A stretch of DNA of 64,000 nt from a virus (IMGVR_UViG_3300048790_000078:22260-86259); one strand, 5' to 3'. Numbered from the stretch's first letter, positions 3,649 to 48,032 are shown. Numbers and translations are program-made. Notes: generated by a model from the sequence alone, not told the origin.

Positions 3649-3899
3649 GCGGCAACTCCAGCGAGAGAGAGAACGTCGAGCGTCGCCGGACAGGCAGGGG
3701 AGTCCTGTCGATGTTTGTCGGCAACGGCCTCTTGCGCCCCATGCAGCGTGGTCGGGATCCGGCTCAGCGGGATGTTGCCGCTGGCCTTGCAGTCGAGGCA
3801 GTTCCAGCGAACGTGCCGCTCGAACTCGCCGACATTGATCCGGCCGGGCTTCACAACCCGGTACGCGCTACCGTCTTCCATCACCCGAACGGTGTTCAT
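3645..3899 (-). CDS. Hypothetical Zn-ribbon protein
   Basis: CLDC...H...C motif; coupled to the next gene. Confidence 0.6.
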   Translation of the reverse strand: MNTVRVMEDGSAYRVVKPGRINVGEFERHVRWNCLDCKASGNIPLSRIPTTLHGAQEAVADKHRQDSPACPATLDVLSLAGVAA

Positions 3900-11214: not shown

Positions 11215-11853
11215 TCACTCCGTCATTTGTTGGCTTCGGACAAATACCGCCGAATAATGCGTCATCTGCTGTGCCCATCCGCAGTGGTAGCAGGTCCAGT
11301 TTGAGATCCGGTACCCGCGGAGCCCCGCCAGCTTCTCCATCTGGAACCGGCATACCTCGGCATACCGCCTATGCAGGTGATCGTTACCGAAGTGGTCCAC
11401 GGCGCCTGTCTTTTGCAGCGATTTAGATTCCCAGCCTGATTTCCCGCAGAGATACTGCCGCAGCCCATCGGTAACCACCATGGCGAGGATCGGCGGAAAG
11501 GCCCGCGACGACGTGAAGAAGCCTTCGAGAAGAGGATTCGGATCACCCCATGGATCCACGTCGACGAAGTTGACCTGCAGGTGGGCCCCGGCGCCCTTTG
11601 CCACCGCGGCGACGCTGTCAGCCCGATAGACGGCCCAGCCCGGCCGCTGCTTTGCCAGCGCTTCGCACTTTTCCGGATCCTTCTCGATCACCACGCCGCT
11701 CTCCACGTCGCTGTAGCAGGCCTTCCAGATCTCTCCGAAGCCTCCGTTCGTCTCCATCACCACCGGACGCACCGGAAGCGCCCGGAGCGCGGCACGCCGC
11801 AGGTTCACTTTGAGCAGGATGGTCGCGTTGTCTTTTTTTGGCGCGGTCGGCAT
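11215..11853 (-). CDS. SAM-dependent methyltransferase-like protein
   Basis: VMETNGGFG (motif I-like), VIEKD, VDVDPWG (DxDPYG-like); coupled to a ParB gene. Confidence 0.6.
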   Translation of the reverse strand: MPTAPKKDNATILLKVNLRRAALRALPVRPVVMETNGGFGEIWKACYSDVESGVVIEKDPEKCEALAKQRPGWAVYRADSVAAVAKGAGAHLQVNFVDVDPWGDPNPLLEGFFTSSRAFPPILAMVVTDGLRQYLCGKSGWESKSLQKTGAVDHFGNDHLHRRYAEVCRFQMEKLAGLRGYRISNWTCYHCGWAQQMTHYSAVFVRSQQMTE

Positions 11854-12501
11854 TACTGGAGGCTGATCCCGCCAACCTCGGCGTTCTTCGCTCGGATGTA
11901 GGCCTGGCAGATCTCCATCACCGCCGCCGCCCTGGTCGACTGCCCGGCCAACCTGATGGCTTCCTCGAACGCTGCCAGCGATTGCATGTACACCACCACA
12001 TGCAGCATTTTATCCCGATCCGCGTTCCTCGAAGCATGCCCCGGGCCGGCGGCCGGGCCCCCAGCCGCGCCAGCGATCATCTCCCCGAGCTCCTCTGGGT
12101 CGAAGCCGGTTAACGACAAATCAAAGCCGATTTCACTCAGATCCGCCATTTCGCCGGCGAGCAGGCCGACGTCGAACTCTGCTTCGGAGTGGGATCGGTT
12201 TTCCATTATCCGAAGCCCACGGATCTTCTCCGGCGACAGCCCGCGCGCGACGTGCACCGGCACGGTCTTCAGCCCCAGCTTGATCGAAGCCAGCCTTCTG
12301 ACGTGCCCGATGACTATAACCCCGCTTTCCTCGACAACGATCGGCTGCACGAACCCGTAGGCCTGAATGCTGGCGGCCACCTTGTCGATTGCCGATTGCG
12401 GTATCACCCGCGCATTTTTCTTGTACGGGCGTTAGACGTTCGATCTCCCAGATCTCGATGGACAGATCGGCGGATGGGGACGGCGGGCGCGCGGCTGACA
12501 T
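11853..12501 (-). CDS. ParB/Srx N-terminal domain protein, apparent +1 frameshift near 12426
   Basis: IEIWEIERLTP|YKKNARVIPQSAIDKVAASIQAYGFVQPIVV...GHVRRLA is split across two frames at ACG CCC G TAC. Confidence 0.8.
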
Positions 12502-12687
12502 TCGACTTCCAGTATGTCCTGGTGATCATAGACGGCGCAAACCTGGAGGGTTCCAAAGTCTTCCATTGGGCGGGTTTTCCAATGGCGCGATGGCGGGTTA
12601 CCAAAGCAGGCCAGTTTCTACAAGCATAGGAGCCAATCCGTAGACGTACCGGCTCAAACCCACGCCAATTCACCTGTCGGACGGCTC

Positions 12688-12974
12688 CAAACCTATCAAA
12701 ACAAAGGGTTTACTGGAGTCCAAAATAAGGCTCTCAAGTCACTCATTCTAAAGGGTTTAGAGATTTCCACAGTTTCGGCTAGTTTTCCACATTTCGGGCG
12801 GAATTGTGCACAGGAAATCCACAGTCAGCAGGCTGAAAATCGCTTCTAAGTAACTCAAAACAAAGCGTTTAACAAAACTTGTGGATAACTCAGAATTCTA
12901 CAGCCAGGGCGGTTTTCATCCTCGGTTTCAGGGTATTCTATAAGAGTAGTAAGTAATACAAAACAAACGGGTTA
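12688..12974 (+). repeat. Four degenerate 25-bp direct repeats (12688-12712, 12735-12759, 12847-12871, 12950-12974)
   Basis: CAAACCTATCAAAACAAAGGGTTTA / CAAGTCACTCATTCTAAAGGGTTTA / TAAGTAACTCAAAACAAAGCGTTTA / TAAGTAATACAAAACAAACGGGTTA. Confidence 0.8.
12763..12888. promoter_or_regulatory. Cluster of five DnaA-box-like 9-mers
   Basis: ATTTCCACA 12763, TTTTCCACA 12783, TTGTGCACA 12804, AAATCCACA 12815, and perfect TTATCCACA on the minus strand at 12880-12888. Confidence 0.65.
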
Positions 12975-13427
12975 CGACACGCGGCGCGGCTTTTTTTGCG
13001 CGTCGGGACGGCCAGGACGGCGTCTAGTGACTCCTCGGCAATTTGATCTTTCACAATTCGACAACCAAAGCGAGACTAGGCGCATACGCGTCCTGTGGTC
13101 GCGGAAACCATTTCAACGGGTTTTAGATGTTGACGGGGAGAATATCTCACTAACCTATCGTCATAAGTCCTGGCAGTCTCCAGGCTGGCGAGCAGGGCCC
13201 TGGATTAGAGAACACCCAAACCAACAGAATCTCAGTCCCAAGACTTTGCGGACGTCCTGAGAGATTGTTTCCTGCCCTGGGAAGTGACCAACTGTAAAGA
13301 GCGTATTTGAGCCTAACAAGGGCGTATATAGGGTAGTTTCCCAAGCGGGAGATATCGGGCGGATTCTTCGTTCGGTCCTACAGACTATAGCCTGGCACGC
13401 GTCGCGCGGGTTTGTCGAGACAGATAT

Positions 13428-13456
13428 TTGACAACTAAATAGAGCTCTGAAATCAT
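13428..13456 (+). promoter_or_regulatory. Candidate sigma70 promoter for the early operon
   Basis: TTGACA-17 bp-AATCAT with an extended TG. Confidence 0.35.
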
Positions 13457-13875
13457 GGACTTAGAACGTATGAGTGCTTTTTGTCGCGGTTTGACAGAAT
13501 GACAAGGCGGCGACTCCATGAGGCGAGCAAACCTTCAAATCAGCGTATAGGCGAGAGCCTTTTGATTCCGACGAAATGATGTATCCCTCGCGGGTGTTTT
13601 CGGTTATGTTGCGAGCATTGAGAGACAGGAAAAGTTTACTCCCAATAGCCAATAGCCGGAGCCTTCATAGTTGCGTCAACAGTAATCAGCGCGAGATTTG
13701 ACGGCCGGTTGAGAGCCGGTCGAAATGTTCCAGGGCGGACGCATAAGGCGAAAGGCATCGCAGCGTCCAAACTGGAAAATGATCCGAGAAATTGCTACCT
13801 CCCCGTGGTTCGGATCGTAAACGTCAGCCGCGCGGCTTGACGGCCAAATGCAAACCCTCCCGAAAGGCAAAATCC

Positions 13876-14004
13876 ATGAAACGAAATATCGCAATAGCTA
13901 TGCAAGCCCGTGCTGCCAAAATCATCCGCCTGAATCAGATGCGGCGCAATTCCCGTGTAATCTCCAAGCATTCGGTCGTGCCAGCGACCCACGGAAAAGC
14001 GTAG
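13876..14004 (+). CDS. Small basic early protein
   Basis: GAAAGG RBS; TAG stop lies inside the octamer. Confidence 0.55.
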   Translation: MKRNIAIAMQARAAKIIRLNQMRRNSRVISKHSVVPATHGKA

Positions 14005-14139
14005 ACGCGCCATGCGGGCCGGATGGCCGGTCCGCTTTCAAATGTCCATCAAAACACCAGCTTCCCCGCAGCGATGGACGGGCAACGGAGCGTAGACGTT
14101 CCGGCAATGGTGAACCTTCCCGAAAGTGAACAAACGAAC

Positions 14140-14610
14140 ATGAAAACGACTGACCTGCAGTTCAAGAATGAAACCTCAGACAAGACCTATACCGTCGCGA
14201 TCGACGGCCTGGAGGTGCTCTACATCTTCGGCAAGCGCGAAGGAACGAAGACGACCATGTTCCAGATCGCGGATGACAAGGCGGAAGCCCGCCAGCTCCA
14301 TGACGATTGCGTCAAAGGCCTGCTGAAGAAAGGCTACACGCTGGCGGCCGGTTCGGTGGCGCCGAAGACTCCGACCGATATCGCGGAGTTCCGGCGGGCC
14401 GCGGCTCTGAAAGCATGGGCGACCATGCGCGCCAACGGCATCAAGCCGGCGGAAGCGAAAGTGAAACGCTCGGAACCCATGACGGCGGAGGAACGCTCGG
14501 ACGCAGCGAAGCGCGCCTGGATCACCATTCGGGCGAATCGCGAAGCGGCTGCCAAAGCGGTCAAGGCCGAGGCGCGCGCGGCGAAGAAGCTCGCGAAGGT
14601 CGCGGCGTAG
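14140..14610 (+). CDS. WGR-like domain protein with two AAxxAWxTxR helical repeats
   Basis: SDKTYTV...YIFGKREG...LLKKGY then RRAAALKAWATMRAN / RSDAAKRAWITIRAN. Confidence 0.7.
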   Translation: MKTTDLQFKNETSDKTYTVAIDGLEVLYIFGKREGTKTTMFQIADDKAEARQLHDDCVKGLLKKGYTLAAGSVAPKTPTDIAEFRRAAALKAWATMRANGIKPAEAKVKRSEPMTAEERSDAAKRAWITIRANREAAAKAVKAEARAAKKLAKVAA

Positions 14611-14630
14611 ACGTTTCGATCCTGTAGTGC

Positions 14631-14659
14631 CCGGGCGGTGAGTTTACCCGCCCGGTTTT
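14631..14659 (+). terminator. Intrinsic terminator-like hairpin
   Basis: CCGGGCGG...CCGCCCGG followed by TTTT. Confidence 0.6.
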
Positions 14660-14745
14660 CCAATGCCTGCAAAATCGCAGCCTTCCCGTGGCGCAGGTGA
14701 TCTGTTACCAATGCGAAACCTTCCGAAAGTGAGATCCATCCATCC

Positions 14746-14955
14746 ATGACCGCTTCAATGAAATCCCGCGCGGATCGCGCGACCATCGACCTGATTCGCA
14801 TGTCGGCGAGCAAGCTCGTAGACGACACGAAAATTCATCTGGTGACACCGCTTCGCCCGCCCATGAAGCCGGCGACGGCCACCATCGGCGAATGCCTGGC
14901 GTTTGCCGGCCGCCTGGGGCAGTTCTCCAGCGTCACGATTCAGGCGGTGCGCTGA
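14746..14955 (+). CDS. Hypothetical protein
   Basis: CCGAAAG leader motif; part of the operon. Confidence 0.6.
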   Translation: MTASMKSRADRATIDLIRMSASKLVDDTKIHLVTPLRPPMKPATATIGECLAFAGRLGQFSSVTIQAVR

Positions 14956-14956
14956 C

Positions 14957-15322
14957 ATGGCGATTTCCTCCTTCCGCTCCGAAAGCATTATCGAACTCCT
15001 GCAGTATGAGGGGATCAAGAACGAACGGGACTTCGCCAACTGGTGCGCGGAGCGCCGGCAAAAAGGCGAGTCCCGCTTCTCGACTCTGAAGCGGATCTTC
15101 GGCGAGGTCAACGCTCACCGGATCATGCGCGTGGTCGAGGTCGCAAGCTGGAAGCTCGTAGACGTTCGCAAGAAGCGCGCGGCGATCAAGCGTACTGCCA
15201 GAACCATAGCGGCCACGCGGCGCGACCTGAAGGGCATCCGGCGCCAACTGATTCCGGCCGATGAGCGGTTGGATCTCAACCTGGTCGATTACTACTACAC
15301 CCGCGAAATGGGCGGAGCGTAG
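14957..15322 (+). CDS. Hypothetical basic protein
   Basis: Coupled ORF. Confidence 0.65.
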   Translation: MAISSFRSESIIELLQYEGIKNERDFANWCAERRQKGESRFSTLKRIFGEVNAHRIMRVVEVASWKLVDVRKKRAAIKRTARTIAATRRDLKGIRRQLIPADERLDLNLVDYYYTREMGGA

Positions 15323-15327
15323 ACGTC

Positions 15328-15669
15328 ATGGCGATGCGTCCTTCGATCCGGCGGGAACTCAACAAAGCCCGCGAGCTGCTGCGCTTCATGCTGCGCGGCC
15401 AGCGCTGCTACTTCTGTCATGGCCCGCTCATCGAACCGGAGAAAGTGGTCCGGGACGGTGACGGGACGGCCGAACCGCTGGCCTTGGCGGTAACGATCCA
15501 TCACAAATCGGGTGACCACTCAGATAACAGCGCGGGCAATACCGTGCTGAGTCACTTCTCATGCCACAAAAGCCACCATGCAAAGCACATGGTCCGGGCC
15601 GGTGGCAAGTTCCACAAGCAGGGCGCGGCTGTTCTCGTAGACGCGCCAAAACGGAGGAAAGCAGCATGA
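15328..15669 (+). CDS. HNH-like Zn-binding nuclease
   Basis: CYFC...TIHHKSGDHSDNSAGNTVLSHFSCHKSHH. Confidence 0.7.
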   Translation: MAMRPSIRRELNKARELLRFMLRGQRCYFCHGPLIEPEKVVRDGDGTAEPLALAVTIHHKSGDHSDNSAGNTVLSHFSCHKSHHAKHMVRAGGKFHKQGAAVLVDAPKRRKAA

Positions 15670-16022
15670 CGAAACCATGGGAATGCCCGCTCTGCTTCTG
15701 CGAAGGGAAGCACGCCGATAGGTGTGAGGCTGGACACCTGACGAAACCTCCGGCCGCACCGACCGTTCACATGAACGGTACAGGCTGGAAGGATCTTTAC
15801 AGTCAGATGGAGGATGCCGCACAGGCGCTCAGCGCAGCAATCGTTACGATGCGCGCAGCCTGCCCGAATGGCCGGGACTACTATGTACAGTCCCCCGGCG
15901 CCACGGAGATCGCGCAGAACGAACACTGGGAACGCATCCGTAAAATCATGGCCGTCAAAACTGAGCTCGAACTGGTATGGATGGCGATCTCGGATCAGGA
16001 ACCGAAACGGAGGACAACGTAG
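15666..16022 (+). CDS. Hypothetical protein
   Basis: GGAGG RBS; PTVHMNGT...PNGRDYY. Confidence 0.65.
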   Translation: MTKPWECPLCFCEGKHADRCEAGHLTKPPAAPTVHMNGTGWKDLYSQMEDAAQALSAAIVTMRAACPNGRDYYVQSPGATEIAQNEHWERIRKIMAVKTELELVWMAISDQEPKRRTT

Positions 16023-16026
16023 ACGC

Positions 16027-16218
16027 ATGAACTTCACGCTCACCCTGAACCTGAATCCCGGCACCACGTATGCCGAAATCCAGCGGCAAGTGTTCATCGC
16101 AGCAAGCAAGCTGCCGGTGGATTCGAGCAAGCCGGGCGGCAAAGAAGAGATCCACTTCTTCTGGCCGGGCCGCGACGGAGCCGAAGACGTATCCGGCCAG
16201 TGGGTAATCGACAAGTGA
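16027..16218 (+). CDS. Hypothetical protein
   Basis: GGAGG RBS. Confidence 0.55.
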   Translation: MNFTLTLNLNPGTTYAEIQRQVFIAASKLPVDSSKPGGKEEIHFFWPGRDGAEDVSGQWVIDK

Positions 16219-16643
16219 AAACCCCGCGCATCATCTCTATTCGCCAGCCTTGGGCATGGGCGATAACCTCGGGCGATATCCCTGCGGACCTGCGGAAGGA
16301 TTTGGAGAACCGCAACTGGAAAACGAACTACCGCGGGCCGCTTCTGGTCCATGCCAGCCTGAAACCGGATCGGCGTATCCCCGAAGTGGTATCGTTTCTC
16401 GAAATGGCAACGGGCCTTGAACTGCCGGCGCCCGCGGATCTCCCGCTCGGCGGCATCGTTGGGCGGACCAATCTCGTAGACGTTGTGAGCAAATCGAAGT
16501 CGCACTGGTTCTTTGGCCGGTACGGCTTCGTTCTGCGCGACTCGAAACCTCTGCCGTTCATCCCCTGCAAAGGGCAGCTCGGCATCTATTACCCCGACAG
16601 CGAACTGCTGGTCGCACTTCGCAAGAAAGGAATCATCCGATGA
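16215..16643 (+). CDS. ASCH domain protein
   Basis: ISIRQPWAWAI...KDLENRNWKTNYRGPLLVHAS...PCKGQLG. Confidence 0.9.
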   Translation: MKTPRIISIRQPWAWAITSGDIPADLRKDLENRNWKTNYRGPLLVHASLKPDRRIPEVVSFLEMATGLELPAPADLPLGGIVGRTNLVDVVSKSKSHWFFGRYGFVLRDSKPLPFIPCKGQLGIYYPDSELLVALRKKGIIR

Positions 16644-16864
16644 CATCGCAAATGCCGGCGCTTCCAACCGATCTGCCGCTGTTCGCTGAGCCGGAATGTC
16701 CCTGCGGCTTCGCGCACGCCACACTGAAGCGCCTCATGCTGCGCGAGCGCCGCACGCTGGCCGAATGCCAGGCCAGTAACCATCCGGCAGCCGAAGACAT
16801 GGCCGCTGGCGTAGACGCCCGCTGCGCGAAGCTGCAATGGCATCTGGACGGTGGCTGCGCATGA
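16640..16864 (+). CDS. Hypothetical protein
   Basis: ATGA-coupled. Confidence 0.55.
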   Translation: MTSQMPALPTDLPLFAEPECPCGFAHATLKRLMLRERRTLAECQASNHPAAEDMAAGVDARCAKLQWHLDGGCA

Positions 16865-17147
16865 GCTACCCTGTCCATCCTGCGAGCTGACGGCCCCGCT
16901 GAGGACTGGCGGGATCGTTGGGCACGTTCTGGAGTGCTTCGGATGCGGGCGCAAGGTTTGCGTCCCGGTCGGCACGCCGGTATTCGATCTGGGAACGCAG
17001 CGGATCGTAGACGCTGCGCCTCCCGTCGAGCATACCGACTTCAGCTATCTCCGCTTCACCTGGCGGAAAGGCAAGGGCACTGTACGGCGCATGGTGTCCG
17101 GTAAAGATCGCGCCGCTCAACTCGATTACCTTCTGGAGGCTGCATGA
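16851..17147 (+). CDS. Zn-ribbon protein
   Basis: CPSC...CFGC. Confidence 0.6.
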   Translation: MAAHELPCPSCELTAPLRTGGIVGHVLECFGCGRKVCVPVGTPVFDLGTQRIVDAAPPVEHTDFSYLRFTWRKGKGTVRRMVSGKDRAAQLDYLLEAA

Positions 17148-17304
17148 ACTCGTTACCGATCTGGCGCATCTTTAACTACCTCGCGAAAACATGGTACGAC
17201 CTGCCGACCGCGCGGATGGATGAATTCGACGGCTGGTATCCTCCGGCCATAAGCGCCGTCTGGAGCATGGCCAACGCTCAGGAACTCGAAAGACGGGCAA
17301 CCTC

Positions 17305-17685
17305 ATGAACCGCGCCATCGTTCCCGAACCCATCCGCCAGGTGCTCGACTCGTTCCGCCACCTAGCAAGCAATCCGCCCCTGTATCGGGCCAGCGTAGAC
17401 GCGCTCAACTTCGCCGTGATGGAGATCGCGGCCGAGGTCGGGCCGTGTCCATCGTGCGGCGCGGACAGCGGGGTGAAACCGAACCGCTTCCCGCTGAAGG
17501 TCGAATCCGAACGCGGCTCTGAATACTGCGCCGTGTGCGGTGAGCCGGCGCGGGAGTTTCCGGTTCCGGTCCCTGTCGGCATGCCTTCGGACTTTGACCC
17601 GGAAGACTACCGCATCCGCCACGCGGAAGCCCGCGCCTACTTCTGCGGACTCGGCGAATCCCCCATGGAGCGCGACCGCCGATGA
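17305..17685 (+). CDS. Zn-ribbon protein
   Basis: CPSCG...CAVCG. Confidence 0.6.
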   Translation: MNRAIVPEPIRQVLDSFRHLASNPPLYRASVDALNFAVMEIAAEVGPCPSCGADSGVKPNRFPLKVESERGSEYCAVCGEPAREFPVPVPVGMPSDFDPEDYRIRHAEARAYFCGLGESPMERDRR

Positions 17686-17897
17686 ACGCCATCGGCCGCG
17701 ATTTCCTCGTCGCAATCGTCTTGATCGCCTTCGGTATCTGCATCCTCGCCAAAGGCAAACTGTAACCCGTCAACCGAAAGGACAAACGAAATGCTCGCAC
17801 TTCTAATGTCGATCCTGCTTCCGCTGCTTCCGCCAATCGGGCCGCCCTCGCCGATCGATCCCGGTCACGGCTTGCACGCCATCGGGCCTGCGCGGCC

Positions 17898-18137
17898 ATG
17901 CGTCAACTGTCGGCACCTGCGCTAACGGACATGGAAAGCCCAACACTGTCTGCCCGCGTGGTAGTCGTCACGCCCCTGCATCCGTACTGGGGCGAAACCT
18001 GCTACATCGTCCGAAGCCGTAAAAAACCGGACTGCTTTCTCTGCGAGGTCATCGGGCAACCGAAATGCCGCGCATGGTTCGCAGAGTACGACCTGATGGA
18101 CGAACGCAATTACAACGATCTTGCCGACCGGCAATAA
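17898..18137 (+). CDS. Hypothetical (SH3/KOW-like) protein
   Basis: Beta-rich small ORF upstream of the AAA gene. Confidence 0.45.
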   Translation: MRQLSAPALTDMESPTLSARVVVVTPLHPYWGETCYIVRSRKKPDCFLCEVIGQPKCRAWFAEYDLMDERNYNDLADRQ

Positions 18138-18147
18138 AAGGAGAACC

Positions 18148-19647
18148 ATGCCATCCACCCTGAACATCGCAAATTACGCCGATGCGGGCTTTCCCGCAGT
18201 GGCAATCGCAACCGCCGACGAAGACAGATCCATCGCCCACTGTCTCTCGCAACTGAACAGGCCGAACGCCTGGCGCATCGCGGCGTCCGGCGGCCTGCTC
18301 GACGCCCGCACCGGCCGGGCCGTAGACGAAAAGGGCAACTACACCACGGCCCTGCTGAAAATGCGCACGCTGAAGCAGAACGAAGCCCCGCAGTGCGTCC
18401 TGTTCATGCTGGACTACCAGCATGTCATCCGCAACGCGGCGGCGTACCGGGCGCTCCGGGACACCATGACAACCTGCAAAGCGCTCGGGGCAATGATCGT
18501 GCTCGTGTCTCCGGCATGGCAACTGCCGGCGGAACTGGAACACGATATCCCGGTCGTGAACGACGCGCTGCCATCGCGGGAAGAACTGAACGCATCGCTC
18601 ACGATCTGCGCAAACGGCGCGGGCGCAGTGGTCGATGACGCAACCCGCACGGCCATCCTCGACGCCGCTTCCGGCCTGACCCTGGGCGAAGCGGAAGGCG
18701 CGATCGCACTCAGCTTCAACGGCACCAGCTTCGATCCCGGACTGGTCACCGAAGAGAAGATGAAGCTGGTCCGGCAGTCCGGTTACCTCGAAGTCTCCGC
18801 ACCGGCGAACATCGCGGACCTGGGCGGGCTCGGCGGGTTCCGCAGCTACATCGAACAGGAAGTCGTTCCCGTGCTGCATGAACCGGACCTGAGAGTTCGC
18901 GGCGTGTTGCTGGTCGGAATTCCTGGCACGGGAAAGTCGCTTGCGGCCCGCGTCATGTCGGCGATGCTCAACCGCCCTATTCTCCGATGCGATATCGGGT
19001 CTCTCCAGGGGTCTCTGGTCGGCGAATCTGAACGCAAAATGGCCGCGATGTTCAAGCTGGCCGAAGCCGTCGCACCTATCACGTTATGGTTTGACGAGCT
19101 TGAGAAGGCAGTCGGCGGCTATGCGTCATCGGCCAATACCGATGGCGGCGTGAAGCTCGGGATGGTCGGCATGCTGCTTACCTTCCTGCAAGAACACCGA
19201 AGCGACATTATCGTAGTCGCGACGGTCAACGACTACCAGAAACTCCCCGCCGAACTGACACGCGCAGGCCGCTTCGATGAACGGTTCTTCGTGAACCTGC
19301 CATCGTGGGCGGAGCGGGTCGAGATCGCCGCAGTCCATCTCCGCAAATACGGAATCGCTGGCGGGACATGCGCGGAGCGCGCGGCGGACCTCAGCTCTGA
19401 ATGGACGGGCGCGGAGATCGAGCAATTGGTCCGCTCGGCTGCCCGGCGCACGCGGCGCGCCATCACACCGGAAGCTCTTGAAGCTTGCGCTCCAGACATT
19501 CGCCCGATCTCCAAAGTCCGAGGGCCGGAGATCGCAGCCCTTCGCGAATGGGGCACGGCGAACCTTCGCCTGGCAAACACGGTGGAAGCAACGCAGCCGG
19601 TAGCGTCGGGCCGGAAGATTGGTGCGCGCGTCGCAAAGGCAAGCTGA
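18148..19647 (+). CDS. AAA+ ATPase, Ycf46-like
   Basis: Walker A GIPGTGKS, GSLVGESE, Walker B LWFDELEK, SRH LPAELTRAGRFDE; degenerate N-terminal AAA domain. Confidence 0.9.
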   Translation: MPSTLNIANYADAGFPAVAIATADEDRSIAHCLSQLNRPNAWRIAASGGLLDARTGRAVDEKGNYTTALLKMRTLKQNEAPQCVLFMLDYQHVIRNAAAYRALRDTMTTCKALGAMIVLVSPAWQLPAELEHDIPVVNDALPSREELNASLTICANGAGAVVDDATRTAILDAASGLTLGEAEGAIALSFNGTSFDPGLVTEEKMKLVRQSGYLEVSAPANIADLGGLGGFRSYIEQEVVPVLHEPDLRVRGVLLVGIPGTGKSLAARVMSAMLNRPILRCDIGSLQGSLVGESERKMAAMFKLAEAVAPITLWFDELEKAVGGYASSANTDGGVKLGMVGMLLTFLQEHRSDIIVVATVNDYQKLPAELTRAGRFDERFFVNLPSWAERVEIAAVHLRKYGIAGGTCAERAADLSSEWTGAEIEQLVRSAARRTRRAITPEALEACAPDIRPISKVRGPEIAALREWGTANLRLANTVEATQPVASGRKIGARVAKAS

Positions 19648-19967
19648 TGATTTGCGACTTCTGTTCGGAACCTCAGCCTGCAATCGCCTTCGAATATCCC
19701 TGCCGGGACTTCGTAGCGCTGGACCCGGATGAAAACCATCTGGGCTTGGGGCTTGGAATGAATGGGTCGTGGCTGGCCTGTTCGTCCTGCTCGGAACTGA
19801 TCGAGCGCGGCATGCTGTCCGAACTGGCAACCCGCCAGCTTGCCGCCCGCGATGACCTGCCCGAAGATCTCGACTTCCAATGCGAGATCATCGGCCTGCT
19901 GGTGCAAACCTTCATGCGGTTCCAGTCTCTTCGCATGGGACCGCGCCGCGAACTTCAACCCGCATAA
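19647..19967 (+). CDS. Zn-binding hypothetical protein
   Basis: ICDFCS...WLACSSC. Confidence 0.65.
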   Translation: MICDFCSEPQPAIAFEYPCRDFVALDPDENHLGLGLGMNGSWLACSSCSELIERGMLSELATRQLAARDDLPEDLDFQCEIIGLLVQTFMRFQSLRMGPRRELQPA

Positions 19968-19992
19968 TCGAAACCGAAAGGAAACCTTCACC

Positions 19993-20976
19993 ATGAGCAC
20001 AATTAACGAACGGGCCATGCTCGTTACCCTGAACATCAGCATGTGGACTGCGGCGGTCGGAGATTCCGAAGCCGCGAAAGAAGCCATGCGCGCAATCGGC
20101 GCGGATGAGAAATTCGAATCGGGCTCCGAAACCGGACGCCTGACGAAGTTCCTCATCGATCCGAAAGCGCTCGCACCTGGCAATAAGCTGGCGGGCGCGG
20201 CGCGCAAACAGCACAAGAAACTGACGTCGCCGTACTCTGACGACAGCACGCGCATCATCGCAGGCGCGGGCTACCGGAAATACATGGACGGCATGGCGGA
20301 AGCCGAGCGGGACTTCTGGAACTGGTACCAGCACACGTTCAAGCCGGCGTACCCGGGACTGGTGGCCAAAGCGCGGACCACGCGCAAAGGCGACTTCCGG
20401 CTGAGCGAGTATCCCGATGCGCACCTGATCGATATCGACCGTGGGGAATGGCGGGACAGGACGCCATCGACCAAGCTCGATCGCAAGTTCGGATTCGCAG
20501 TCACCCCGGCGCCGGTCCCTGAAGCGAATCACTTCTCGAACCTGATCGGAGTCAGCGCGGCGGACATGGCTCTGATTCAGCAGTCGGCCATGAACGACGC
20601 CAACGCCCGCATCGAGCGCGCGGTGAACGACGTGTGGCAGCGGCTTCTGGTAGTGGTCGAAGCCATGGTGGAACGGCTCACCGTGTTCGGTACGCCGCTC
20701 GTAGACGAAAACGGACAGGAAACTGGCAAACGGGCTTTCTTCCTCGATACGCTCGTGACCAACATCACCGGGCTTCTCGATCTGGTCCCGATCCTGAACG
20801 TGACGGCGGATCCGGAGATCACGGCGACGGCGCGGGAGATCGAGCAGCGCCTGACGCAATACAGCCCGCAGGTGCTCAGGAGCTCGCCGCAGATCCGCAC
20901 TGACGTACTCAGGTCGGCAACTCAGATCATGAGCTCTATCCGCGGCACTCGCCGGATCGTTGCGAGGGCGGCGTAA
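19993..20976 (+). CDS. DUF3150-like protein
   Basis: AMLVTLNISMWT...YPD...KFGFAV...LNVTADPEI; located next to the AAA ATPase. Confidence 0.55.
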   Translation: MSTINERAMLVTLNISMWTAAVGDSEAAKEAMRAIGADEKFESGSETGRLTKFLIDPKALAPGNKLAGAARKQHKKLTSPYSDDSTRIIAGAGYRKYMDGMAEAERDFWNWYQHTFKPAYPGLVAKARTTRKGDFRLSEYPDAHLIDIDRGEWRDRTPSTKLDRKFGFAVTPAPVPEANHFSNLIGVSAADMALIQQSAMNDANARIERAVNDVWQRLLVVVEAMVERLTVFGTPLVDENGQETGKRAFFLDTLVTNITGLLDLVPILNVTADPEITATAREIEQRLTQYSPQVLRSSPQIRTDVLRSATQIMSSIRGTRRIVARAA

Positions 20977-22254: not shown

Positions 22255-22803
22255 ATGGAAACGACTCTGTACTACAGGGACGAAGAGAACAATTCCGACA
22301 AGTTCTACCGTGCCCGTCTCGATTTGATAGCCGCGACCGTCACTTTCACTTGGGGGCGGCGCGGCACGGTCGGACAATCGAAAACGGAGACGTTCGGTGG
22401 GGCCGCATGGAGGGCGGAGGAAGCCTACCGTTCAAAGCTGGCAGAGAAGCGGGCGAAGGGCTACCAGGAAGACTACCGCGACGTTTCCGGTGCCCGGCGG
22501 TGCTGCATCACCGGCTGCACCGTAACGGCTGAATCTCCAAGCGCCTATTGCAGCCGTCATCGTTCCGCTGCCGGGATTTCTCCGCCCAATCCAGTACCTT
22601 TTCATCGCCCGACTGGATCCCCGCCGCCGTCATTCGATCCGCCTCAGGTCCGCTCCAATTACCGCGTTCCTGCTCGGCCACTGCAACGAACGGCAGTTCC
22701 TGAACCACCCACTCCCGAACCCGCGCCGATCATGCTGTTTGGCGGTCGGCGCATCATCAAAGCAAACAGGTCACTGCAAAAGAAAGAGGACACGAACCCA
22801 TGA
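22255..22803 (+). CDS. WGR domain protein with Pro-rich tail
   Basis: NSDKFY...VTFTWGRRGTVGQ...EKRAKGY. Confidence 0.88.
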   Translation: METTLYYRDEENNSDKFYRARLDLIAATVTFTWGRRGTVGQSKTETFGGAAWRAEEAYRSKLAEKRAKGYQEDYRDVSGARRCCITGCTVTAESPSAYCSRHRSAAGISPPNPVPFHRPTGSPPPSFDPPQVRSNYRVPARPLQRTAVPEPPTPEPAPIMLFGGRRIIKANRSLQKKEDTNP

Positions 22804-24098
22804 CAACCACGACACCGATCAAATTCCTCCGCCTTGAAGCCTTCAGCGCTTCGGGAAGCAAGTTCTACTCCATCGAAATCAACGAAGACCCGGACTGGGT
22901 CGAGAAGACAGGCATCGCCACTCAGCGATTCACCGTGGACTTCAGCTACGGCGCAGTCGGCGGCTCGATCAAGAGCGGCACGAAGACTCCTAGGCCGGTC
23001 GCTCTCGACAAGGCCGAAGCCATCATGGACAAGCTGCGGATGGAGAAGCAGAACGGCGAGAGCCACTATCATTTCGTCGAAGAGCGCAACGCTGGAGTTC
23101 CGGCCTTCGCTCATCCCAGCCTCGACTGCCCGCCGGCCGCCGCATCGCGCTTCCCCGATTTGGCTGAACGCAAGTATGCCAACTACCAGATGAACAAAGC
23201 CGCGTTCGGTGCGATAGGGATTGACGCTCCGCCGAAACCGCTTCCGGCCTGCATCCCGCCGCGACTGCTCAACGACGTAGACCACGACGCCATCCTGAAC
23301 CTGACCAAGCTCGATAACTGGTGGGTCCAGATCAAGCACGACGGAGACCGGGTGCAATTGCACTGGGACCACGAAACGCAGTCCATCGTCCTATACTCCG
23401 GCCGGTCGGCAAAGACCAGGGCATGCCCGGCGGCCATCGCGGAGGCCTGCGCTGGCATCACCGATGAATCCTTCGTCCTTGACGGCGAGCTCGTCGGCGA
23501 AACGCTCTGGGTCTTCGATCTCCTGAAGTCTCGCTCCAAGGTCCACACGTTCGACCTGATCGCGGCCGAGGCGTCGTACAAGGACCGCTACGCACTGCTC
23601 ATCCGGTCACTGGCAAGCTGGTCCCGGCAATCTCCCCGCTTCGCTGCCGGTGCTATCCGGCTGGTGATCGCGGCGCAAACCTACGAAGAGAAGGCCGAAC
23701 TAATCCTGAAGGCGAAAGAGGAGCACGCCGAAGGCGTCGTGTTCGTAAATAACCGGGCTCCATACCGCGCCGGGCGCCCGAACCGCGGCGGGGACAATCT
23801 CCGCTGGAAGTTCATCGCATCCGGCTCTTTCATCGTCCACTCGCACAACATGGACAAGGGGAAGATGTCGATCGACGTCGCGCTCTATGACGGCACCGTA
23901 ATCGGCACCTGTTCTGTGATCGGCAAGGAGGTTCCTGCAATCGGTGCGATCTGCGAAATCGCCTACCTTTACTGCCTTGAAAAGCTGGTGCAGGCCCGGC
24001 TGAAAGGCGTCCGCACCGACGTTCCACGCATCGCCTGTAACCGCCGCCAGTTGAAGTTTCGGGACGGGATCGACCCGTCGAAAGGACGTGCGCGATGA
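22800..24098 (+). CDS. WGR-like domain plus ATP-dependent polynucleotide ligase
   Basis: SGSKFY...FSYGAVG N-terminus; motif I QIKHDGDR, III VLDGEL, IIIa VFDLL, IV EGVVF, V RWKF. Confidence 0.85.
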   Translation: MTTTTPIKFLRLEAFSASGSKFYSIEINEDPDWVEKTGIATQRFTVDFSYGAVGGSIKSGTKTPRPVALDKAEAIMDKLRMEKQNGESHYHFVEERNAGVPAFAHPSLDCPPAAASRFPDLAERKYANYQMNKAAFGAIGIDAPPKPLPACIPPRLLNDVDHDAILNLTKLDNWWVQIKHDGDRVQLHWDHETQSIVLYSGRSAKTRACPAAIAEACAGITDESFVLDGELVGETLWVFDLLKSRSKVHTFDLIAAEASYKDRYALLIRSLASWSRQSPRFAAGAIRLVIAAQTYEEKAELILKAKEEHAEGVVFVNNRAPYRAGRPNRGGDNLRWKFIASGSFIVHSHNMDKGKMSIDVALYDGTVIGTCSVIGKEVPAIGAICEIAYLYCLEKLVQARLKGVRTDVPRIACNRRQLKFRDGIDPSKGRAR

Positions 24099-34261: not shown

Positions 34262-34967
34262 AGAACTCCTTGCTCGACCAGAAACGGCCGCCCGGATCCA
34301 GCCCGACAGATTCCAGCCAGGCGTTTCGCTCGGCAGTAGAAGGCCACACCACCATCAGCGCGTCCGTCTCTTCTTTCGGCGGTGCTGCGGTATGCGTGGC
34401 CTGCTTCTCGCTGTGGATGGCCACCACGGCTTCGACAGGCGCCAGCGGCCCGGCACCCGCCGCCGGCAACGTCGCGCCCGGGAACATCGCCGCCAGATCC
34501 TCCTCGCCCATGCCGACTTCTTCGAGGTCTAGCCCTTCGGCCACCATCTGCAGCAGCGCTTCGCTGAAGTTGCCCTGCGCTGCCGCGTTGTTCATGAAGA
34601 CGTTGAGCGCCCGCTCCTGCTTCTCTGACAGCCGGACCACGGCGACACCGACCAGGTAGTCGTTCTTCAGCGGGAGGTCTTCAAAGGGCGGTTCGTAGTG
34701 GTTGAGATCGTCCAGGATGCTCAGACGCAAATGACCCGAGACCAGTACCCCGCTCCGCTCATTCCAGCAAAGGGTCTCGACAAGCCCGTTCTTCTCGATC
34801 TGCTTCTTCAGCAGCCGCCGGGACTTCTCTGTGACCAAGCGCGGATTGTATGCTGCGGTGCGGATCGTGGAGCGCTGGATCTCCCTGTAGGAGAACGTCT
34901 GGTGTTTGCTTTTTGCTGACCCGCTTGGGGCGCTCGGGGCGGTTTCGTTTGGCAAGCTCTCGCTCAA
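34251..34967 (-). CDS. ParB/Srx domain protein
   Basis: AAYNPRLV...LCWNERSGVLVSGHLRL...ERALNVFMNN. Confidence 0.85.
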   Translation of the reverse strand: MSESLPNETAPSAPSGSAKSKHQTFSYREIQRSTIRTAAYNPRLVTEKSRRLLKKQIEKNGLVETLCWNERSGVLVSGHLRLSILDDLNHYEPPFEDLPLKNDYLVGVAVVRLSEKQERALNVFMNNAAAQGNFSEALLQMVAEGLDLEEVGMGEEDLAAMFPGATLPAAGAGPLAPVEAVVAIHSEKQATHTAAPPKEETDALMVVWPSTAERNAWLESVGLDPGGRFWSSKEFFGG

Positions 34968-35610
34968 TTTCTTTTTGTCTCTGTAATTCCAGTGCTCGAT
35001 CTGCCTGTGCTGCGGCGCCCGGAAAGACTTGTAGCACCCGGTCGTAGTCCGAAGGCCAGTTCTCCCTCAAGTAGAGCATACTGCTCGGGAGCACGTTCAC
35101 GCCAACGCTGCGGCCGTAAGACAGGTTCGGGATGATGATGCCGGACCGTGACAGGTAGGCTTTTACGTCCTTCTCGGACCAGTCCTTGATCGGAGCGAAG
35201 CGCTTTTCTTTCGCGTTGATGCCGTCGACATACATCGAGAGGATGCCGCGGCGCTCCAGTGAATCGCGGGACTTATAGCCGTATCCGATCCACTCGCAGC
35301 CGGACTCGCGCTTCGCCATGGCTTCGACTTCTTTAACAGAGACGGCGGGGACGTCGACCGGCGATCGGAAGATGCCGTTGCGGAGGTAGTTAGAGGTATT
35401 CCAGTGCTGATACTGGCGGACTTTGACGTGGAAAGTGTCGGCGGCGTACTCACACCAGAACCGGGAGAAGTCCAGGCCAGGTATGAAAAACATGTACATG
35501 CAGGAAAACCTGCGGCCAGCATCTTTGAGTATCTGGCAACAGGCCAAACTGTCCTTCCCGCCGCTGTAGCTGATCAAAAGCTCATCGGCGGCAGGAAGGA
35601 TACTCGGCAT
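34759..35610 (-). CDS. PAPS-reductase-like PP-loop protein
   Basis: ISYSGGKDS, GYKSRDSLERR, APIKDWS; the long 3' overlap with the ParB gene is suspect. Confidence 0.85.
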   Translation of the reverse strand: MPSILPAADELLISYSGGKDSLACCQILKDAGRRFSCMYMFFIPGLDFSRFWCEYAADTFHVKVRQYQHWNTSNYLRNGIFRSPVDVPAVSVKEVEAMAKRESGCEWIGYGYKSRDSLERRGILSMYVDGINAKEKRFAPIKDWSEKDVKAYLSRSGIIIPNLSYGRSVGVNVLPSSMLYLRENWPSDYDRVLQVFPGAAAQADRALELQRQKEIERELAKRNRPERPKRVSKKQTPDVLLQGDPALHDPHRSIQSALGHREVPAAAEEADREERACRDPLLE

Positions 35611-39613: not shown

Positions 39614-39948
39614 AACACCGTCTCCCAGAGCGCCCGCGCCGGCCGCTTCTTGTCTGGCTCCAGATTCACCTTGGGGCGCTTGAAACAACCTGTCGCCGCC
39701 GACTTCGCCTCTTCCATCGTCTTCCCCACCGCGAACGCATACGGGCCGTGTTTGGCCGGGTAGAACAGGTGCTCCCTGTAGGCGCCAAATGTGCCCGGCG
39801 TTTGCTTTACTCCCATCGGCCAATCTTGTGGAGCATCTTCCGGGATCTCATGGACGTACACCACGAACTCGCCGCTGCAGAAATACTGCACGCCGGAAGA
39901 ATCCGACCCGGTTGACCAGTCGATGAAGGTTGCCCGCTCAGTCTGCAT
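39610..39948 (-). CDS. Hypothetical protein
   Basis: GGAG RBS; overlaps the dnaB stop. Confidence 0.55.
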   Translation of the reverse strand: MQTERATFIDWSTGSDSSGVQYFCSGEFVVYVHEIPEDAPQDWPMGVKQTPGTFGAYREHLFYPAKHGPYAFAVGKTMEEAKSAATGCFKRPKVNLEPDKKRPARALWETVL

Positions 39949-47076: not shown

Positions 47077-47964
47077 TCAACGTCTATCGATAACGATTCC
47101 AGCCGATGCTGCCCGCACGTCACAGGAATTGCATAGCGGCCCCGTGGGCACTACCATCACGCCTTTCTTTCCGTCCGGGCGCGTTCCCCAGCGGTGATGC
47201 TTACCGCACGCTTTGGCAATCACCGCGAGCCTGTCAATCTCCGTCGCCACGTCAGGCGCGTAGCGGCGAATCATCGTCAGTTCGTCCACCCGCGCGAACG
47301 CTCCACAGAAACACTCCCCAGACATCGCCAGCGGACTTTCCTTAATCGGATTACGCGGGAGGTCTTCGGCGCTCATGTACGCCGCCTGATCCGCCTGGGT
47401 GAAGTTGTGGCAAGGCGCGGTCCAGTATCGGCGCTTGTTGGCGATCCGCCGCGTTACCGGAAACAGCAACTCGTTTCGCATGTAATCCGAGTCCTTGATC
47501 GTTTCCTCGCCAATCTTCAGCGGTTCGACGCTGCCCATGCGGCGCGTGCTTTCTTCGGAACGGCATCCGGTTATCAGCGCAACTTTCTGCTTCGGGAACA
47601 ACTTCATGATCTTCCGAACGGCGCGCTCTTTGATTCGGTTATAAACCCATGCGTGGCGACCGGGGCCGGGAAATCCGCGATCTCGGACGAACTTCTCGTA
47701 CGTCTCAGTTTCGCTCTTGAACACGTGCAAGTTCCAACCGAACTCGTCGCAGGTTTCCTCAACGTGCCGCCGCGTGGCAAACGATCCAATTCCGGTGTCG
47801 ATGTGGTAAACGTCACCGGTGAACTTCTGGTGCGTGCTGGCGATCTTCACCGCCGTCAGAGAATCGTGTCCGCCGGAATAGAGCGGAACCATGACATCGG
47901 CACCGCGTTCAAAAGCCTCATCGATCACTGCCATCGAACTCTCCAGTAAAGCCTGTTCTGTCAT
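47077..47964 (-). CDS. PAPS-reductase family PP-loop protein
   Basis: LYSGGHDS, HIDTG, GFPGP, ITGCRSEESTRR, SGECFCG. Confidence 0.88.
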   Translation of the reverse strand: MTEQALLESSMAVIDEAFERGADVMVPLYSGGHDSLTAVKIASTHQKFTGDVYHIDTGIGSFATRRHVEETCDEFGWNLHVFKSETETYEKFVRDRGFPGPGRHAWVYNRIKERAVRKIMKLFPKQKVALITGCRSEESTRRMGSVEPLKIGEETIKDSDYMRNELLFPVTRRIANKRRYWTAPCHNFTQADQAAYMSAEDLPRNPIKESPLAMSGECFCGAFARVDELTMIRRYAPDVATEIDRLAVIAKACGKHHRWGTRPDGKKGVMVVPTGPLCNSCDVRAASAGIVIDRR

Positions 47965-48032
47965 TGCCCCATGTCCTTTACATTCGACGGGCGGCAACGG
48001 ACTCCCCGCAACCGCCCGCCATCCCTGCAACC

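Follow-up and report, generated by a model that had tools for sequence, protein, structure and literature searches.

A strand-polarised octamer, CGTAGACG, was identified in a 64,000-nucleotide stretch of viral DNA (IMGVR_UViG_3300048790_000078:22260-86259), here called the window, where it occurred in 15 exact copies on the + strand and in none on the - strand. The window lies in an 86,259-bp IMG/VR record from a peat metagenome, a linear fragment with an estimated completeness of 76%, and the count for the whole record was likewise 15:0 by strand. All but 1 of the copies were located on the sense strand of a single rightward transcription unit of early genes, and neither strand of any other gene contained the word. 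The first 3 cistrons of this operon are each predicted to be headed by a hepatitis delta virus (HDV)-like ribozyme, and 1 of the copies is part of such a ribozyme. The explanation that we place first, tentatively and short of an even chance, is that the word, as CGUAGACG, serves as a tag on each immediate-early message, and that a sequence-specific RNA-binding or RNA-cutting factor reads it for coordinated processing or shut-off.

A chance origin of the array is excluded. The number of copies expected on both strands of the 64 kb was 1.6, with a maximum of 5 in dinucleotide-preserving shuffles, and under a third-order Markov model the word was the most over-represented octamer of the genome. 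It also stood out (p ~2e-14) among about 200 other loci that were scanned in a uniform manner, where its sole equal was an evident promoter motif in a different phage group. The signal was sharply delimited to 8 letters. Variants with one mismatch were no more frequent than by chance: apart from the 15 exact copies there were 54, and about 52 were expected (54.0 for zero to one mismatches minus 1.6 for exact copies). The flanks were unconserved, with a weak preference for G or T before the word and for a base other than G after it. No conserved column that could represent a partner element of the -35 box type was found from position -20 to +27, and inspection of the flanks to -30 by eye revealed nothing. 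The outer bases of the word are symmetric (CGT..ACG), the asymmetry being confined to the centre.

The copies are not spread evenly over the genome. Twelve are located between 14.0 and 17.4 kb, 1 each at 18.3 and 20.7 kb, and 1 at position 12639, while the remaining 12.6 kb of the + strand operon contains none. The sequence-only reading of the window, made by a model, had reported the 15 + strand coordinates with no reverse complement and no copy elsewhere, all of which proved exact in both the window and the full record. Its statement that the word is confined to the first 8 kb beside a non-coding hub, with a density that drops away from the hub, was also borne out, and the similar density genome-wide or on the - strand that it had named as refuting its proposal was not seen. 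The 12 clustered copies were more evenly spaced than expected from uniform placement (coefficient of variation 0.42, P 0.002), and 10 of the first 12 genes carried a copy, which corresponds to approximately 1 per gene.

The hub, of about 1.2 kb, extends from 12.65 to 13.85 kb and has a GC content that falls to 0.53. To the left of 12.4 kb the genes are oriented leftward and include those for a ParB-N-domain protein and the small and large terminase subunits, and from 13.85 to about 33.3 kb every gene is oriented rightward. The rightward operon starts with a dozen small orphan genes, which are followed by the genes for a Ycf46-type AAA ATPase, a WGR protein and an ATP-dependent ligase and, further along, for a clamp-loader-like ATPase, a DUF5131 protein and a methyltransferase. 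The copies of the octamer and the features next to them are as follows.

12431-12439, + strand: look-alike CGTTAGACG, seen by eye; its one-base insertion places it outside the mismatch scan
12527-12534, + strand: degenerate look-alike CATAGACG, found in the mismatch scan too
12639-12646, + strand: copy 1, intergenic, left of the hub repeats and outside the + strand genes
12688-12974, + strand: 4 direct repeats of about 25 nt (..CAAAACAAAGSGTTTA) in the hub, spaced 47, 112 and 103 nt
13876-14004, + strand: g1, 42 amino acids, with its TAG stop in copy 2 (14000-14007)
14140-14610, + strand: g2, WGR-like by eye, with its TAG stop in copy 4 (14606-14613)
14631-14659, + strand: hairpin of 8 G+C-rich pairs followed by TTTT (z -2.7), terminator-like, between g2 and ribozyme 3
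14746-14955, + strand: g3, with copy 5 (14817-14824) as Val-Asp
14957-15322, + strand: g4, with copy 6 (15157-15164) as Val-Asp
15318-15325, + strand: copy 7, which holds the TAG stop of g4 and lies between GGAG and the g5 ATG (15328)
15328-15669, + strand: g5, weakly HNH-like, with copy 8 (15636-15643) as Val-Asp, 30 nt before the start of g6
16018-16025, + strand: copy 9, which includes the TAG stop of g6 (15666-16022) and is situated after GGAGG and before the g7 ATG (16027)
16215-16643, + strand: g8, an ASCH (PUA-like) protein gene that contains copy 10 (16475-16482)
16810-16817, + strand: copy 11, Val-Asp in g9 (16640-16864)
17006-17013, + strand: copy 12, Val-Asp in g10 (16851-17147)
17394-17401, + strand: copy 13, Val-Asp in g12 (17305-17685)
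18321-18328, + strand: copy 14, Val-Asp near the N-terminus of the Ycf46-type AAA ATPase (18148-19647)
20700-20707, + strand: copy 15, Val-Asp in the gene that ends at 20976
22255-22803 and 22800-24098: WGR protein and ligase, downstream in the operon

In the revised gene model, 9 copies represent in-frame Val-Asp codon pairs (GTA-GAC), 4 contain a TAG stop codon, 1 is part of a ribozyme and 1 is intergenic. The counts of Val-Asp and stop-codon copies in the sequence-only reading were thus right (the stops end at 14004, 14610, 15322 and 16022), but its assignment of the copy at 14091 to a gene was not, since g2 truly starts at 14140 rather than 14023 and this copy is located upstream of it, in ribozyme 2. 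The third frame, CGT-AGA-CGN, was never used. The word therefore occurs in 2 reading frames and in non-coding RNA, and it consists of rare codons in every sense frame.

The conclusion that the nucleotide word, not the protein, is under selection, at roughly one word per gene, is strongly supported, as the earlier reading had argued from the use of 2 frames. It follows from the failure of codon-preserving shuffles to reproduce the array, from the bias toward GTA-GAC, from the stop codons inside the word and from the even spacing. Shuffling of synonymous codons within or across the early genes gave mean counts of 3.2 to 4.0 and a maximum of 8, with none of 2,000 shuffles reaching the 14 observed copies; the copies that did appear in the shuffled sequences were largely the stop-codon ones, which a synonymous shuffle barely touches. 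GTA accounts for 23 of the 133 Val codons in the early genes, and 9 of these 23 are located in the octamer. The Val-Asp pair was encoded as GTA-GAC in 9 of 12 cases in the early genes versus 1 of 9 in the later + strand genes. Furthermore, TAG is the stop codon of 4 of the 15 early genes, and all 4 of these stops are inside the word.

The first 3 early cistrons are each preceded by an element with the features of an HDV-like ribozyme.

13781-13855, + strand: predicted HDV-like ribozyme 1 (Rfam RF02682, 33.8 bits, E 1.4e-4), followed by g1
14044-14114, + strand: predicted HDV-like ribozyme 2 (RF02682, 34.7 bits, E 8.5e-5), followed by g2 (14140)
14664-14718, + strand: predicted minimal HDV-like ribozyme 3, which lacks P4 (RF02682, 17.5 bits), followed by g3 (14746)

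All 3 scores are below the gathering score of 44, and the E-values of ribozymes 1 and 2 range from 1e-4 to 1e-6 depending on the search space. The 3 elements share an ungapped core of 36 nt that consists of P1 with 7 pairs, nine bases that include the 5' strand of P2, and P3 with 3 pairs, which in every case closes a UYCCCGY loop. A model built from this core gave ribozyme 3 a score of 47.6 bits and detected no elements in the window other than these 3. P1 and P3 were 100% paired across the 3 copies, with 8 of 10 pairs changed on both sides, compared with 25% to 37% pairing when the partners were slid. The pairs of the P2 pseudoknot could be read directly as UUGC/GCAA, CACCA/UGGUG and UCGCA/UGCGA, each after C-A-A, and the fold of ribozyme 1 recovered P1, P3 and P4. 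P1, P3, a C-rich L3, the P2 pseudoknot and an unpaired C before the 3' strand of P2 are thus present in all 3 elements, from which we predict cleavage at the 5' end of P1 ahead of each of the 3 cistrons; for ribozyme 1 the predicted cut is 5' of 13781. According to the fold of ribozyme 2, copy 3 of the octamer (14091-14098) provides the 2 closing pairs and the UAGA loop of the P4 helix.

It was also noted that each ribozyme is followed by a conserved box, CCYTCC(C)GAAAG, at 13856-13866, 14116-14126 and 14719-14729 on the + strand, 10 to 17 nt before the start codon, and that the box includes an anti-Shine-Dalgarno-like CCUCC or CUUCC. The layout of the elements, with the nested double pseudoknot of P1, P2 and P3, the C-rich L3 and C-A-A before the 3' strand of P2, is the same as in the theta ribozymes of tailed phages (PMC10879173; RF02682, RF00094). 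The published theta ribozymes flank tRNA genes (PMC10879173), whereas the 3 elements described here precede protein genes at the head of the early operon, score below the Rfam gathering score, and in 1 case bear the octamer on P4.

No additional convincing ribozymes were found in about 230 loci searched with the core-based covariance model. A match in locus L216 was not confirmed by Rfam, and 2 loci retrieved by a pattern scan for a ribozyme with the downstream box were not matched by the core model and were taken as chance. Three of the octamer copies lie at a constant 140 nt from the next ATG, which we attribute to coincidence, given that neither the length nor the offset of the ribozymes in between is the same. 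We also considered a trans-acting HDV-like ribozyme that pairs through P1 with GUAGACG, the length and leading G of which suit an HDV P1 substrate strand; this candidate was rejected, as no complement, with G-U pairs allowed, was located beside an HDV core in the 86 kb. A phage antisense RNA to the octamer was rejected as well, since the + strand of the hub contained no complement with or without wobble pairs.

From these data we tentatively propose that the word is read on RNA rather than on DNA. Transcription would run rightward from the hub, the 3 ribozymes would cut the transcript ahead of g1, g2 and g3, and nearly every early cistron, as well as every RNA piece released by the ribozymes, would bear at least one exact copy of the word. 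A factor that recognised the word anywhere in a message could then control the whole early class together. This factor might come from the phage itself, for instance the ASCH protein encoded by g8 or another early protein, or it might be a host enzyme. Its likeliest action would be to cut or inactivate early messages that have served their purpose, in the way that RegB of T4 acts at GGAG. RegB cuts GGAG and thereby inactivates the early messages of T4 (PMC1702504, PMC3014915).

Of the 4 mechanisms offered by the sequence-only reading (protein binding, nicking, a Chi-like function and an RNA-decay tag), it is the RNA tag that has gained weight, because the operon has 3 HDV-like ribozymes and because 1 copy is located on a ribozyme loop. 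Each of the pieces that the ribozymes would release holds a copy: the first the one at 14000, the second those at 14091 and 14606, and the third those from 14817 onwards. The presence of a copy in 10 of the first 12 genes is as expected if each cistron needs one. By analogy with RegB (PMC1702504), one site per cistron would be needed by a nuclease that inactivates messages, and would be needless for a protein that blocks the polymerase on DNA. The strict exactness of the word, with near-variants not enriched, fits an enzyme with a fixed short RNA target. The gene for the ASCH protein sits in the middle of the cluster.

Several observations weigh against the RNA tag. Copy 1 at 12639 and the degenerate copies at 12431 and 12527 precede the hub repeats, in a part with no evident + strand transcript, and this position fits a signal at the DNA level better. 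The predicted RNA accessibility of the 8-mer did not differ from the background; the central UAGA showed somewhat greater openness (P 0.017), perhaps because of its A/U content. No homolog of RegB or of another known sequence-specific endoribonuclease was detected among the early and middle genes in searches against Pfam and PHROGs, and the ASCH family is widespread in phages without known words of this kind. Contigs from one peat metatranscriptome did not consistently start or stop at the octamer, and a library of this kind may contain DNA. Finally, apart from the ribozyme context, every supporting feature would be found just as well with an oriented DNA site that is read during transcription. 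We also looked for a common hairpin around the octamer and found that the local folds vary from copy to copy.

Such a DNA site is the basis of the alternative that we consider next in probability, unlikely by itself but not far behind the RNA tag. Here, a phage protein would recognise the octamers as oriented binding sites and would thereby block or silence early transcription in the rightward direction, so that the array would be a short counterpart of the stoperators placed within genes. Each bound monomer would stop RNA polymerase from one side only; these barriers would be most crowded right behind the early promoters, and together they would shut down the early class. The strict polarity relative to transcription and the clustering just downstream of the hub agree with this explanation, as do copy 1 and the degenerate copies left of the hub and the small proteins with zinc-ribbon- or HNH-like appearance that are encoded within the array. 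There is also a proven precedent, since stoperators are orientation-dependent, asymmetric, more than 20 in number and bound by monomers (PMC9283540). The symmetry of the outer bases around an asymmetric centre is moreover shared with the start-associated sequences (SAS) of Cluster K mycobacteriophages (PMC3203893). On the other hand, the phage word has 8 bp and tolerates no variants, as opposed to the 13-mer stoperators (PMC9283540), and for 10 of the 15 copies the location is a gene or the ribozyme, not an intergenic gap. No site occurs elsewhere in the genome, whereas stoperators are spread throughout, and a spacing of approximately 1 per gene is not required for a roadblock. No repressor-type, integrase or helix-turn-helix gene was recognised around the hub or in the array with Pfam and PHROGs, where many of the small proteins remained without assignment. 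We rank the RNA tag above the stoperator-like roadblock because of the RNA-processing layout, the presence of a copy on each released piece, the copy on the ribozyme loop and the number of one per cistron.

A comparison with the known families places the array in neither of the 2 that it most resembles. The stoperators of the Cluster A mycobacteriophages, which are bound by the L5 gp71-type repressor, are likewise short asymmetric words in many copies that are oriented with transcription and provide control of a whole class (PMC9283540, PMC6550527). They are 13-mers in promoters and intergenic gaps throughout the genomes of temperate phages, and their reader is known (PMC9283540, PMC6550527). 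The orientation of the phage octamer follows transcription in the same manner, with 15:0 by strand and 14 sense copies in one operon, but it is an invariant 8-mer, mostly intragenic, with 9 copies in genes and 1 in a ribozyme, none outside 12.6-20.7 kb and no recognised repressor.

The SAS and their extended forms (ESAS) are also non-palindromic, with symmetric outer bases and a single orientation, and are found only among non-structural genes (PMC3203893). Like the octamer, which has one orientation and is restricted to a non-structural region, they sometimes overlap the stop of the gene before them, and they have no known reader; they are also missing from the host or rare in it, and the octamer is ordinary or depleted in the candidate hosts. 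They are, however, 13 bp long, contain the ribosome-binding GGAG and are located 3 to 7 bp before start codons (PMC3203893). The octamer lacks Shine-Dalgarno character, and a start codon follows within 10 nt only for the copies at 15318 and 16018, the gap to the ATG being 2 and 1 nt and GGAG lying outside the word; 9 copies are in mid-gene. On the grounds of length, position and distribution, the array is a member of neither family.

The RegB system of T4 also relies on a short sense-strand word on many early messages, through which one factor inactivates the class (PMC1702504, PMC3014915). Its word is only 4 nt long, is mostly located in ribosome-binding sites and needs ribosomal protein S1 (PMC1702504, PMC3014915), and the scans of the phage proteins gave no RegB homolog, cutting at the octamer being a proposal. 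By analogy, the array may work as the stoperator, SAS, Chi and RegB systems do, with an oriented short word that marks a whole gene class.

The Chi-like option, in which a terminal cluster of words would tame a host nuclease of the RecBCD or AddAB type that enters at the DNA end on the hub side, with CGTCTACG on the - strand as the active word, was found to be very unlikely. It would account for an exact octamer in a single orientation whose density peaks where the packaging genes adjoin, on the non-terminase side, and falls off outward. This is also the arrangement of the Chi sites in the lambdoid phage LLS and in Pseudomonas phage MD8, of which 20 of 23 and 32 of 32 have one orientation and cluster at the non-terminase end (PMC12315714). 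Chi is nevertheless the host's own over-represented word, whereas neither CGTAGACG nor CGTCTACG was over-represented in the candidate hosts tested. There was no over-representation in 5 genomes that hold relatives of the AAA gene of the phage, and in 151 genomes of Acidobacteriota the word ranged from near absence to at most about 4 times the reversed-word control. Across the 156 candidate host genomes, the octamer was thus ordinary or depleted, at about 0.01 to about 4 times this control. The Acidobacteriota sample includes 2 unpublished genomes, G029 and G054, on which no specific claim is based. The composition of the octamer from rare codons in each sense frame also speaks against a Chi function.

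A second word lowered the probability of the Chi-like explanation further. The octamer GCTGGCCT, which has a GCTGG core, was the second most enriched octamer of the phage and occurred 15 times on the + strand versus 2 times on the - strand across the whole record, in regions of both gene orientations (for example at 3780, 7782, 15477, 19772, 21401, 26749, 29078, 29429, 54591, 60503 and 63810). In some Acidobacteriota genomes (e.g. G108, G063 and G126) it reached a Chi-like frequency of about 1 per 4-5 kb, 6 to 8 times the control, in long runs on the same strand, and it did so where CGTAGACG was not enriched. GCTGGCCT may be the Chi-like word of the host and hence a clue to the identity of the host. 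It was further observed that a contig from a Bryobacteraceae metagenome-assembled genome (MAG) contains the Chi word of E. coli, GCTGGTGG, in a ratio of 11:2 by strand within 20 kb (L142).

The word could also act during elongation, read on the non-template strand or on the nascent RNA in the manner of ops/RfaH, nut boxA or the class II pause of T7, either to pause RNA polymerase or to load an antiterminator. A length of 8 nt corresponds to the non-template segment exposed in the transcription bubble, the copies are sense-strand only and promoter-proximal, and CG-TAGA-CG can form a mini-hairpin, as does the ops element of the RfaH system. Known elements of this type, however, occur 1 to 2 times per operon and not 15 times, copy 1 lies upstream of the presumed promoters, and no NusG-, RfaH-, N- or Q-like gene was recognised in the Pfam and PHROGs scans, so that we regard this explanation as improbable.

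We assign a similarly low probability to the view that the word marks where one strand of the virion or replicating DNA is nicked, as happens in T5, tf and phiKMV. On this view, the HNH-like g5 protein would make the nicks, which the WGR proteins would sense and the ATP-dependent ligase would seal. The exactness of all copies on one strand would suit nick sites, and the required types of genes are at hand, with a weak HNH gene in the cluster, the WGR and ligase genes downstream, and g2 resembling WGR by eye. Yet genes for HNH, WGR and ligase proteins are common in phages without nicks, and the known phage sites are genome-wide and not packed into 4 kb; in T5 and tf they are spread across the whole genome.

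Least probable of all, and barely credible, is that each copy represents a promoter for a phage-specific RNA polymerase or sigma factor, one per early gene. The number of about one copy per gene would be consistent with this, and some phage promoters are only about 8 bp long, such as the late promoter of T4, TATAAATA. Distant relatives of the phage also bear polar, promoter-like words after T-runs in intergenic gaps. However, 2 copies are located between the Shine-Dalgarno sequence and the ATG, so that a transcript started there would lose its ribosome site, and a transcript started at the copy in ribozyme 2 would lose half of the ribozyme. There is furthermore no partner element upstream or downstream, and no gene for an RNA polymerase was present among the proteins scanned.

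Turning to the proteins that might read the word, the sequence-only reading had listed the WGR proteins, the ligase, the early HNH protein and the ASCH protein as possible local readers; the ASCH and HNH proteins could be recovered as leads, and none of those listed could be identified as the reader. The g8 protein matched phrog_3193 (E 4e-45), and its homologs in cultured phages are annotated as ASCH. One ASCH protein is a single-strand-specific ribonuclease (PMC5615036), which makes the g8 protein a candidate reader at the RNA level, although it is a lead and nothing more. At the DNA level, the g5 protein is a candidate lead, with matches to HNH in PHROGs (E 2e-4) and in Pfam (E 0.045, below the cut-off). 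Relaxed profile scans gave weak hints of a zinc ribbon in g12, likewise a lead, and no match for g4 in Pfam at relaxed thresholds, in PHROGs or in the protein atlas. The WGR-like N-terminus of the g2 protein is followed by 2 repeats of a basic KAWxTxRAN motif, for which there was no Pfam match.

To place the array among other phages, we searched for relatives. None were found among cultured phages by megablast with 9 kb of sequence. The AAA ATPase, the ParB-like protein and TerL used as seeds identified distant relatives only, with at most 37% identity in IMG/VR and 50% to 58% in a few MAG contigs; closer homologs of the AAA protein, at 57% to 75% identity, were mostly on short contigs of 2 to 15 kb. 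An unbiased word scan of the relatives' loci revealed no comparable array, the strongest signals being tandem repeats, protein repeats and promoter-like intergenic elements. A scan of IMG/VR for a two-copy pattern showed that at least 119 loci carry two or more copies of the octamer. Those with the most copies (4 to 6) among the matches listed mostly had it antisense to large genes, where the sense strand reads GTC-TAC (Val-Tyr) in common codons. Such antisense use of the octamer in other phages is a codon effect, unlike the sense-strand use of rare codons in the phage studied here.

Other word arrays were seen in the course of these scans. A group of IMG/VR relatives by the AAA gene (L014-L025) contained a polar cGGTGGCGTTA..N..TGG in 7 to 12 copies on the gene strand, in intergenic positions after T-runs, which looks like a phage-specific promoter. 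In L009 and L011, GGTTGAAT was present 7 times on one strand, with several copies just before start codons. A 92-kb phage of high G+C content (G159, the record behind L326) carried CGTCTACG 20 times on one strand, genome-wide, versus 1 occurrence of the control word; in the part examined, 4 of 5 copies were Val-Tyr in the sense frame, and this array may be no more than a codon-pair bias.

Stoperators, SAS sites and terminal Chi clusters are oriented arrays of short words in phages, a type of array on record since the 1990s, and only some of them have a known reader. What sets the present array apart is the particular combination of an invariant 8-mer, a mostly intragenic location, rare codons and ribozyme-headed cistrons. 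It is an unusually clean case, in which an invariant word is kept against codon preference about once per early gene in an operon with 3 predicted ribozymes. The ribozymes themselves, through their position in front of protein genes where an early operon begins, add to the uses recorded for this class in phages. More broadly, and with considerable doubt, the data may point to an undescribed form of early-gene control, in which an 8-nt code on every immediate-early message is recognised by a dedicated sequence-specific RNA reader, maybe the ASCH protein, alongside the cutting by ribozymes, and which would represent one case of a wider, unrecognised class of "early-region word arrays". The 4-kb cluster is compact and clonable, and offers a test bed for whether such words are read on RNA or DNA, and by what. 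If true, a new sequence-specific reader of 8 nt in RNA or DNA would be a useful tool.

A few further observations concern the hub and more distant genes. The 4 direct repeats in the hub may be early promoters or origin elements. A 382-nt contig from a peat metatranscriptome of another study matched the hub at 13218-13599 with 99% identity, and among the contigs that were wholly on the stretch and matched it closely, it was the deepest in that run. The match is a hint of transcription in the hub, the product of which may be an abundant leader or a non-coding RNA that would be freed by ribozyme 1. Further to the right, the gene for a DnaB-type helicase (39938-42607, - strand) was found to be interrupted by an intein with a LAGLIDADG endonuclease domain. 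Finally, 2 PAPS-reductase-like proteins are encoded at 34759-35610 and 47077-48030 on the - strand, and the ParB-N-domain protein at 11853-12407 on the - strand, a pairing that we presume to be reminiscent of IbrA/IbrB-like or DNA-modification modules.

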